A DNA stretch of 59,236 nucleotides, the filler included, from Platydemus manokwari (Eukaryota): the NCBI GenBank assembly GCA_037951405.1. It is 5 parts of 5 records of this genome, joined end to end, with 100 filler letters (N's around TTAATTAATTAA, not from the genome) between each part and the next. Parts side by side here need not be neighbours in the genome. Positions count along the whole stretch, not along the records: positions 38,068 to 49,458 come from JBBMOY010707762.1; 4 more parts are not named here. One strand, written 5' to 3'. The position numbers were made by a program, and so were the translations under genes. Shown here in pieces: positions 45,430 to 48,125 of this stretch. Each line of letters opens with the position of its first letter. Position 1 is the first letter of the stretch. The notes under the pieces were generated by a model that was given only the letters and a program-made list of their open reading frames with translations, had not been told where the DNA came from and made no database searches.

Positions 45430-48125
45430 AACAGGGAGAGAAAATGATGAAAATTAAGAAGAATTTAAAGCAAATAGCTCAGGAACAATAATAGAAAAAG
45501 AATCTTCTCTCAAAATCAGAAGGGGAAACCAGATATATATATGACAAGACGGTCGAAGAACTCAAAACAGAAATAGATACCAATAAACGAAGGATAGAAT
45601 TAGAATATTTTGGTCGTCCACTCAAAGATAATGAAAGATGTGAAAATCGAAGTTAAATATAAGGAGAAATCGATTAAAGGCATAAATAAAGAAGGTAAAC
45701 AAGTGATAGCTGTCGTAGATTTAGACGATGAGGAGGAAAGAATTCCCGAAGAATTAATGGAGGAATTTCAAAAGGAACCTCCAAATAATAGATAAATAAA
45801 GGAAATATATAATGTAGTTGGAGTGATAGTTCCACTACATGTGTTTAAAGAATTAATAGATATAAGCAGAACTCACCTTCAAGAATTTATTGCATTTGTA
45901 CCAGAAATCAGAGTGTTATTAGCAAGGTTTGGATCATGTCTCAGGACATCTCAAGAGGATACGAGACCTATGCACATAATATGGTAAGACATTTTAACGA
46001 GTTAATTGAATCTCATTATTGCACCAAAGTTGGAAAAATTCGTAGGAAGGCCAAACGCGTTATGGAAAATGAGCATATCATAATGTTGTTATTCAAAGGT
46101 CAATATTGAAATGATGAGTATTTAATCGATATTGGATGCAGTCAGAATGAGGTGAGTATAATAACTGCGATTTTATTAAATAGCAGAGGACATATGGTGC
46201 CAAGGCCCGTCTCGCTATATTATCCAAACAATATAACGGAATTACAAGAAAGAGAGGTGCAACTCAACCTACGGAGCAACGGCACGCCTCTACCAATAGC
46301 AAAAGAGCTGACAAGGAGTATCAGAGAAATAGAAGATCCCGATGACGTGATATTGGAAGAAATTCAAGAACAGACAGAACCAGAAGAAGTTCAAATCCAA
46401 GAAGAAACAGAATTAGAAGAAGTTCAAGAGGAATTCGTCGAGTCACAGGAAGGAGATAATGAACAATTAACCCTACCTGTTAAAAGACGATTCGAATTCT
46501 CAGAGCATGAACGAAGAAGCCAATCAGCTAAGCAAGCACTGGTAGAAGAATCTAGACCAAGACTTTCAGAACCAGGTAGAAGAAAGGATCAGATGACAAG
46601 GCATTTGCTAAGTGTCACCACAAATGCAAAGATTAAAGCAAGAGCTTTAGAGAAAGTTGCACGAAATTTGATAGAGCCCACAGGGATTATGCATGAGGCA
46701 TCTACACATGCAGAGGACATGTTAAGGAAAATGCATTGAAACTGTTACAGAAAATTGAAGACTGAATCGGTTGAAGTAGAAACTCAGATTTAACATATCA
46801 TGTCAGACGAAAAGGAGGATGACGAAGAGATCATCAAAAGTTTTGCTCAAGGAATAATGGGATGATAGAAAGCGCAGATAGCTGTACCCTTCATGATACG
46901 AAAGCTATAAGGAGTAACTACGAAGCATCCATAGAAATATCAAGAAACTCTACTGAAAATGGCCACGTTATTGGAAAAGTATATCGAGCCATGGATGAAT
47001 AGACGTTTCGGATGGGAAGGACCGATTAACGAACAGAGCAAACCCAAGCCATCTAAAGTAAGAGAAGCACCAAACATAGAGTTAGGAGCACAGATGCTTA
47101 TGATATTATTTAATAGGACAGGAACTATGGCCATACGAGCATTCGATTGCGATAAACCTCAGTTGGGAAAGATATATTCGCTAGTGGATTTAGAAGAGTG
47201 CCTGAGGCACGACCGATGAAGATAAACACGAAAAAGGTTATATACAATGTATACCAAGAAACGGGCTATAGAAGGGCCAAGGTAAGAGAATGCAGAGTAA
47301 AAAGAGCTAAATTCGAATACTATTGTGGATATCACAGTCATGCGTCAATAGTCTCCGCCGAAATGATATCCAGAGCTATAGACGTTCTCCTTTACCTCAG
47401 AGAAGTTGAAAATAGATGAGAACACGACTCTTACAGTAGAAAAAAGCATAATAAACACACAAATCCTAATTAAAGATGATGGTCTATGTACTGGACGAAC
47501 GGTCAATAGAGGAAAATATTACGTTAATAGCATAGTTACTATCTATGATTATGAAACCAAATTAAGAGAAGTGGAAGAAGTTATTGATGAGGAATCAGGA
47601 GCAATGTTATCTTATCCAAACTGTACTACTAAAGTAACTAATTGTTTCACCGGACAAGCAACTTTAGTATATGAGGTAAGGCCAATGGAATGTCAGTTAG
47701 CGTATATAAGCTCAGCTGAATTCTTCCAAACTAAAGGAGAAATAATTAAGGACTCAATACGTGATTTGAAAGCGACCCTGAAAGAAGGAACGGCAACACG
47801 AGAATTATAACTAGAAGAAACCATAATAGCATTGGTTAGTGTAAACGAGAAAGAAGGCATGAGATTAATCAGAAAAGAAAACACGGTAAGATGCGGGAGA
47901 AGTATCTAACACACGAATTACCAAGGAATATTAGTATCAAAAACAGAAATTAATCAGGCCAAGAAAGTTAGAGCAGTTGATATCAGGAACGATGTCCATG
48001 TTAGTAATAAGTTGGATTATTTGTATCACATAATTCAGGATAAGATCAAGCATGTCTATTAAGACATGATTCTTAATTATTGTAGACTCAATAGGAAAAT
48101 ATTGAGAAATGGATTTTATGACCGA
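45430..48125 (+). pseudogene. Endogenous virus-like element copy 1: unknown N-terminal region plus chuvirus-like glycoprotein ectodomain (frameshifted, C-terminally truncated)
   Basis: AIRAFDCDKPQLGKIYSLVDLEEC, YQETG..VRECRVKRAKFEYYCGYHSHASIV, DDGLCTG, CFTGQATLVYEV..C, RCGRSI*HTNYQGI and SNKLDYLYH..NYCRLNRKILRN follow the motif order of chuvirus-like G. Confidence 0.8.

Follow-up and report, generated by a model that had tools for sequence, protein, structure and literature searches.

Results

A fusion glycoprotein region in Platydemus manokwari is very probably part of a dead Burro-like retroelement

In 59,236 nucleotides of Platydemus manokwari DNA (the whole stretch that was analyzed, referred to as the window), a region containing part of a fusion glycoprotein (G) is very probably what is left of a dead, 5′-truncated, and internally deleted Burro-like Ty3/gypsy LTR retroelement, of a kind encoding a single Gag-accessory-Env-Pol polyprotein. 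Because gag, pol, and LTRs are missing from the window copy, this class was assigned through the homology of its accessory and env regions to L001, an intact relative found on a metagenome contig. Judged from its stops, its frame changes, its half glycoprotein, and its lack of gag and pol, the window copy is non-functional. As the copy is dead and the architecture was already published for planarian Burro elements in 2018–2019, it is no discovery.

The window consists of five contigs joined via N-spacers, and the element lies on the contig at 38068–49458. Outside mobile elements the GC content is ∼23–26%, and the longest stop-to-stop frame in the window is at most 209 aa. Genes with short introns and remnants of LINE and LTR elements fit an AT-rich eukaryotic genome, most likely that of an invertebrate. 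The 100-base spacers (at 19346, 28303, 37968, and 49459) contain a central linker with stops in all frames, and the contigs that flank them are possibly not genomic neighbors. The features of the element, and of a second one on the same contig, are as follows.

45430..45640 (+): likely end of the first ubiquitin-like repeat; the repeated element starts about here, with no gag upstream (weak motif match and depth rise)
45637..45945 (+): helical domain, homologous to L001 residues 496–599 (tblastn)
46017..46180 (+): predicted ubiquitin-like domain (second repeat), with one stop at 46107 (aligns to L001 629–681)
46325..46475 (+): acidic low-complexity linker (44% D/E over 50 residues)
46692..47040 (+): predicted Bcl-2-like domain (BH1/BH2-like region), holding all six stops of the frame (profiles)
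47079..47138 (+): internal hydrophobic stretch, the predicted signal peptide of G, decayed in the window copy (hydropathy, spacing, and PF24664 start in relatives)
47139..48113 (+): N-terminal half of a Monjiviricetes-type (chuvirus-like, gB-type) fusion glycoprotein, with two frame changes and three stops, ending near 48110 (PF24664 and L001 colinearity)
48114..48170 (no strand): break point, with the remaining G and all of pol missing (depth fall and one bridging contig)
48170..49313 (+): decayed 3′ region that is also repeated and may be left over from a 3′ accessory ORF (many diverged contigs map)
38693..40160 (−): second divergent decayed element with helical, ubiquitin-like, linker, likely Bcl-2-like region, signal, and G start (PF24664 E 9.5e-11 and tblastn)

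G and the region before it share one reading frame

Positions 46110–47216 (+) form a single frame that contains six internal stops (46737, 46791, 46863, 46866, 46908, and 46932) and is closed by a stop at 47217. For these 369 codons, 1000 dinucleotide shuffles gave a mean of 24.9 stops and a minimum of 11, and six or fewer were obtained in 0/1000, in agreement with the initial annotation, which had described one frame broken by point stops. At four of the in-frame stops, most of the mapped contigs among those listed carry another reading, which indicates that the stops are decay of the window copy and not conserved gene ends. The order that had been read from the sequence, an acidic linker followed by a hydrophobic stretch and then AFDC, was found as well, with a hydrophobic stretch that is weak in the window copy.

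Word-index protein searches with two pieces of G returned nothing among longer proteins, which is weak evidence. A phmmer search with the window frame, its stops masked as X, gave five proteins at E ≤0.001, and four of these, from ENA and JGI assemblies, are true relatives; the fifth, an unrelated HEAT-repeat-like protein, was dropped. Each of the four has a Bcl-2-like region, a strong hydrophobic stretch, and a YDC start in one ORF with no stop. A profile of these four relatives found P0013, a 575-aa piece that contains a BH2-like end, the signal, and G (PF24664, E 3.8e-61), and a metagenome contig scan with the five relatives gave 321 pattern matches and one confirmed locus, L001. Locus scans of viral_contigs, genome_contigs, and another of metagenome_contigs yielded no confirmed relative, a weak result as the scans were pattern-limited, and ESM Atlas had no usable match to P0008.

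The BH2-like motif of the Bcl-2-like region, the signal, and the start of G share one ORF in 6/6 database relatives. This bears out the proposal that G is translated in frame with the upstream domains behind an internal signal. P0008 and P0012 begin at a Met shortly before the Bcl-2-like region, so some families may carry a separate ORF of Bcl-2 plus G.

L001 encodes an intact polyprotein with G between Gag and a Ty3/gypsy Pol

L001, the only full-length relative found, is an 11.9-kb contig with an intact 3,184-aa ORF at 403–9957. Its order is Gag, two helical plus ubiquitin-like repeats, Bcl-2-like, signal, G, protease, RT, RNase H, and integrase, and the Pfam matches run zf-CCHC (1e-10), PF24664 (1.4e-90), aspartyl protease (1.9e-9), RVT_1 (1.9e-34), RT_RNaseH (7.9e-39), Integrase_H2C2 (2.8e-21), and rve (7.6e-11). 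The signal-like stretch occupies residues 885–903 and G begins at residue 913; a hydropathy scan at a threshold of 1.7 called no C-terminal anchor of this G. Between protease and RT lies a ∼130-aa insert with no Pfam or PDB match. A PBS-like site starting with TGG is present ∼25 bases before the ORF, and no long direct repeat was found in L001, the contig ending there. The L001-type PBS was not found in the available part of supplement 1 of PMC13524379, a table that stores reverse complements.

By tblastn, the window copy aligns with L001 residues 496–599 (45637–45945), 629–681 (46023–46178), 797–933 (46773–47201), and 938–1251 (47213–48110). The window copy is 23–47% identical to L001, and none of 300 shuffles scored as high as any of the three upstream matches, the first of which, at 45637–45945, has 23% identity and a sum E of 1.3e-4 jointly with the next piece. 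At the level of sequence, then, the window copy is colinear with L001 residues 496–1251 over four modules. The initial annotation had placed G at the C terminus of a polyprotein; in L001 protease, RT, RNase H, and integrase come after G in frame, and, as the window copy is colinear with L001, this indicates that the polyprotein is real and that G lies in its middle.

The RT-RNase H part of L001, for which 4ol8 is the best PDB match, also matches Ty3-G Gag-Pol (E 1e-83), which makes the carrier Ty3/gypsy where a BEL/Pao-type capture had been invoked. Among the 17 Pfam matches of L001 there was none to the families that we take to be BEL-specific, and none to MATH, BIR, ankyrin, or Smc-like families. 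The only pol-bearing relative thus has a Ty3/gypsy enzyme set, and its G precedes pol and is fused to ubiquitin-like and Bcl-2-like domains; set against these observations, a shared Pfam G family and the chuvirus-like G carried by Anakin (PMC7642597, available part) leave it very improbable that the window copy comes from a BEL/Pao element that has captured a chuvirus G.

Other parts of L001 were noted in passing. Past the integrase, a signal-like stretch (residue 2854) and a C-terminal TM helix (3134–3168) together predict a second membrane protein, for which Pfam gave no match. Positions 9958–11781 hold a 607-aa ORF2 with no family match; a by-eye identification of ORF2 as a DEDD exonuclease was dropped because there was no Pfam or PDB match. 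The 90% cluster of L001 has a second member in ENA.

Ubiquitin-like and Bcl-2-like domains are predicted upstream of G

The upstream domains had been called unknown, and profiles now point to ubiquitin-like and Bcl-2-like identities (ISG15; PF00452 and Bcl-xL, respectively). A profile built from the two L001 repeats and two window pieces (A6) matches ISG15 (E 1.8e-5), the ubiquitin-like part of the second L001 repeat matches PF00789 UBX (E 1.6e-4), and ubiquitins are the top Foldseek rows for a model of the domain (best E 0.013). The window segment alone had no match in Pfam. With a profile of the L001 repeats alone, the second window copy scored E 4.5e-6 (39815–39642) and the first only E 1.3. 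ESM Atlas placed the first L001 repeat with unnamed clusters at 0.83 and with ubiquitin/Rad60-SLD clusters at 0.81–0.82, which are leads only. No Pfam match was obtained for the helical domain at 45637–45945. By eye the helical repeat looks similar to a death domain, a likeness that was not supported: the model has a pLDDT of 35–63 there, and no death-fold protein was present among the profile or Foldseek matches.

Directly before G, the call of a Bcl-2-like domain is supported at the level of profiles. Among the relatives, PF00452 matches P0011 (7.7e-5), P0012 (8.9e-4), and P0008 (0.012), all under the cut-off (31.4 bits), and does not match P0009, the window segment alone, or the L001 segment alone. 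Profile A5 matches Bcl-xL (E 1.9e-4), the best 60 of its 94 matches are all to the Bcl-2 family, and it also matches A179L of African swine fever virus (PDB 5ua4/6tzc, E 0.004). Profile A7, built without window sequences, matches Bcl-xL with E 3.3e-4 (positions 74–142) and covers the window from 46716. An AlphaFold model of the L001 segment (8 sequences; pLDDT 74, pTM 0.47) is extended and not compact; Bcl-xL occupies its top Foldseek rows, but with E no better than 0.07 and TM below 0.5, and VIA-align gave no Bcl-2 chain in 50 rows, with unrelated helical bundles scoring best (Z 7.2).

The window copy retains a decayed signal and the N-terminal half of G

As the initial annotation had held, G matches a chuvirus-type profile, the Monjiviricetes fusion family PF24664. 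The matches lie at 47213–47416 (E 4.8e-9) and at 47382–48134 (E 1e-5, under the curated cut-off), and the frame changes within G are near 47200 and 47385. Colinearity with L001 extends over residues 913–1251 (tblastn, sum E 1.4e-51), and the window G is 31% identical to P0013 residues 207–412. The PF24664 match in the window copy stops at profile position 347 of 653, which indicates that the C-terminal half of G and its membrane anchor are missing. Among the PDB matches of profile A7 there was no glycoprotein in the best 60 of 92. G is putatively a class III (gB-type) protein, an assignment that follows in part the available text of PMC13524379.

The hydrophobic stretch of the window copy ends 8 residues ahead of AFDC and has a 13-residue hydropathy of 1.38, compared with 2.1–3.3 in 7/7 other sequences. 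Both the hydropathy and the spacing to an [AV][YF]DC start are conserved in 8/8 sequences, and in the relatives PF24664 begins at this stretch, consistent with its being the signal peptide of G.

The window copy lacks gag and is broken within G

At the 5′ side, summed contig depth (one sequencing run, which may be the window's own source) rises from 38 (bin 44908–45287) to 1729 (bin 45288–45667). No RNA run was among those listed as containing the stretch. A 14-residue match to the ubiquitin-like motif of L001 at 45594–45636 is weak, with 1/300 shuffles equally high, and L001 gag had no match in 44000–45500. By tblastn, neither the gag nor the pol part of L001 matched the window. A Pfam scan of 86 ORFs, chosen from 147 of at least 55 aa with GC of at least 0.27, found no RT, integrase, or RdRp families on the contig at 38068–49458. 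Both results agree with the earlier observation that none of these is visible on the contig. No long direct repeat of the kind that an LTR pair would give was found around the window copy.

At the break in G, summed depth falls from 2271 to 125 (∼18-fold), and a single contig of depth 15 spans 48021–48447 unchanged, so the junction is present in the DNA of that run. The break is probably a real deletion private to the window copy, given the single bridging contig and the ∼18-fold drop; the joint would be common if the G of the family ended there. Several further single-contig deletion joints are listed, as would be expected under random decay. These joints bear on whether the element is a non-autonomous or bipartite derivative that has the accessory and env block only and depends on an autonomous gypsy element for its copying in trans. 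Such a derivative would fit the start of both window copies near the helical and ubiquitin-like block, without gag, and the repetition of the region 3′ of the break; the privacy of the G deletion and the scatter of other single-contig joints speak against it, and we regard it as unlikely.

Within that 3′ region, 48646–48850 can be weakly aligned with the beginning of L001 ORF2 (score 62 compared with a maximum of 59 in shuffles, 0/200; 1/30 frame tests), a likeness that can serve as a lead only. Two further candidates were rejected. A motif at 48160–48200 that resembles the terminal part of a gypsy RNase H had no score against L001, and a likeness of 49205–49270 to the L001 3′ end was matched by 5/500 shuffles and by 6 other window tiles (of 642).

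The window element belongs to a diverged repeat family

Summed contig depth in the same run is 914–1968 over 45288–48327 and 27–90 in the flank at 42628–45287, values that are not copy numbers. On 47700–49458, 403 contigs map, of which 316 are under 95% alike. The window element thus belongs to a diverged repeat family. The second copy (38693–40160) lies ∼5 kb from the first, head to head, with 46–50% identity over two short pieces of G. It matches L001 residues 549–679 (E 3.9e-4) and 876–1044 (E 4e-27) by tblastn; its Bcl-2-like region is placed by alignment alone, as profile A7 gives no score there.

The presence of hundreds of diverged contigs, and of two distinct families inside 6 kb, speaks for transposition and against derivation from an exogenous negative-strand RNA virus (a chuvirus or relative) with a structural polyprotein, of which the window copy would be an endogenized fragment. 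The PF24664 match and the lack of RT and integrase on the contig would suit such a fragment; against it, the window copy has four modules in the same order as a gypsy polyprotein, and three of these precede G; the ORFs scanned by Pfam contained no trace of L or N; and the pattern-limited scans of viral_contigs, weak as they are, returned no relative. This origin is extremely improbable. The initial annotation had offered an enveloped virus or an env-bearing giant retroelement: the retroelement stands, as the G of L001 is linked to a gypsy pol with no match to L, and the RNA virus does not.

Several features of the window lie apart from the G element. Two copies of a small gene (41415–41800 and 43802–44190, +) are 66% identical over ∼720 bases and by eye each appears to have short GT-AG introns of ∼30–50 bases and to encode a protein of ∼90 aa that contains cysteines and is secreted by way of a signal peptide. 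Highly abundant short repeats at 41868–42627 and 38448–38827 have summed contig depths of 33,000, 8,700, and 17,000, compared with 27–90 in the flanks. On the next contig, 50900–53750 (+) is a decayed non-LTR retrotransposon, presumably NeSL-like and unrelated to the G element, with a PF02902 Ulp1 remnant (E 0.002) and PF00078 RT matches (E 1.1e-7 and 1.1e-5). The region 4000–7500 is GC-richer, with a GC skew of up to 0.39 and the look of a decayed mobile element; ORFs scanned there had no match in Pfam, and none to L001.

Discussion

From the domain order and in-frame fusion observed here, and looking past the decay that is also seen, we infer how an intact element would work by reference to established polyprotein topology. 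Gag and the accessory domains would be made in the cytosol, and the hydrophobic stretch, serving as an internal signal, would direct G into the ER, with signal peptidase cutting just before [AV][YF]DC. The Bcl-2-like domain would then remain at the cytosolic face, anchored through the cleaved signal in the manner of cellular Bcl-2 tail anchors, where it could damp apoptosis of the producing cell. The anchor of G itself would return the chain to the cytosol, the element protease would free RT, RNase H, and integrase, and G would let particles enter neighboring or germline cells. By analogy with viral Bcl-2 proteins and with Drosophila errantiviruses, anti-apoptotic action and cell-to-cell spread of intact elements are likely.

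A broader reading is possible, if rather doubtful: that these elements form a compact (∼12 kb), unnamed Burro-like branch of endogenous viruses, whose hosts may include animals other than planarians. In this branch a functional viral Bcl-2 would use the env signal peptide as its tail anchor as well, the tandem helical and ubiquitin-like modules would tune host death or ubiquitin signaling, and a retroelement that spreads from cell to cell would make capsid, anti-apoptotic factor, fusogen, and enzymes from one chain. The supplement of Grohme et al. 2018 may already list compact elements like L001.

The practical consequence is that what is taken in an invertebrate genome for one of the “chuvirus glycoprotein EVEs” can derive from a gypsy polyprotein and not from infection by an RNA virus. 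In addition, the Bcl-2-like and ubiquitin-like domains of L001 are small enough to test a suggestion made in the available text of PMC6431247, that Burro elements interfere with apoptosis and ubiquitination in the host.

Among known systems, members of Chuviridae/Jingchuvirales differ in that their G is a separate gene beside L (RdRp) and N, whereas here it is fused in 6/6 relatives with no match to L or N. Anakin elements are BEL/Pao elements with a chuvirus-derived G (Dezordi et al. 2020, PMC7642597; 2023, PMC10084718, both in the parts available). They resemble the present element in the capture of a G from the same glycoprotein family, in the broad sense, by an LTR element and differ in their BEL/Pao pol, and those parts of the two papers describe no fused ubiquitin-like or Bcl-2-like block. 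Troyka elements were rejected as a comparison because they have no envelope protein, according to the available text of PMC12440569. A179L of African swine fever virus likewise combines a Bcl-2-like domain with a hydrophobic anchor after it; it is a stand-alone gene and not a domain of a retroelement polyprotein.

The available text of PMC13524379 (Chary and Hayashi 2026) describes GAG-ENV-POL “errantiviruses” with an HSV/gB-type env in Platyhelminthes, Bryozoa, and Nematoda, and the available part of its supplement 1 includes 9 flatworm elements, 6 of them from Schmidtea mediterranea, with spans of ∼12–18 kb. By that description, these elements share with L001 a Ty3/gypsy pol, a gB-type env before pol, and a similar size. 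The accessory block is not described in the available main text, in which “Bcl,” “apoptosis,” “Burro,” and “fused” do not occur.

The closest system is Burro/GYPSM1, a group of planarian Ty3/gypsy LTR retroelements of giant size (Jurka 2007; Grohme et al. 2018; both as cited in Arkhipova and Yushenova 2019, PMC6431247), and PMC6431247 was the only report that a literature search for Bcl-2 in a gypsy element returned. As given in its available text, the Burro polyprotein consists of Gag with CCHC knuckles, Ubi2/SUMO-like, BCL2-like, and env regions, and then PR-RT-RH-IN, with a dUTPase-like segment between PR and RT found via HHpred. Its env, which lies in frame between gag and pol and matches mononegavirus fusion glycoproteins, was termed the first such case, and decayed Burro fragments with stops and frameshifts occur in Dugesia japonica. 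L001 likewise encodes a single polyprotein in which env is read in frame after gag and before pol, and of this the window copy keeps only the accessory-env junction in one frame. It also has a BCL2-like domain directly before env (profile E values of 1e-4 to 1e-3, under the Pfam cut-off) and a ubiquitin/SUMO-like domain upstream of this, by profiles. The Gag CCHC and Ty3/gypsy PR-RT-RH-IN of Burro are present in L001 and are missing from the window copy, for which we infer them. L001 differs in its size (3,184 aa on an 11.9-kb contig compared with 4,873–5,140 aa and >30 kb), in its two helical plus ubiquitin-like repeats, in having no MATH, BIR, or ankyrin domains, and in an extra predicted membrane protein after the integrase. 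Because L001 is smaller and free of MATH, BIR, and ankyrin, and because it is likened to Burro from the published description, the window element and L001 are called Burro-like and are not filed in Burro1–4.
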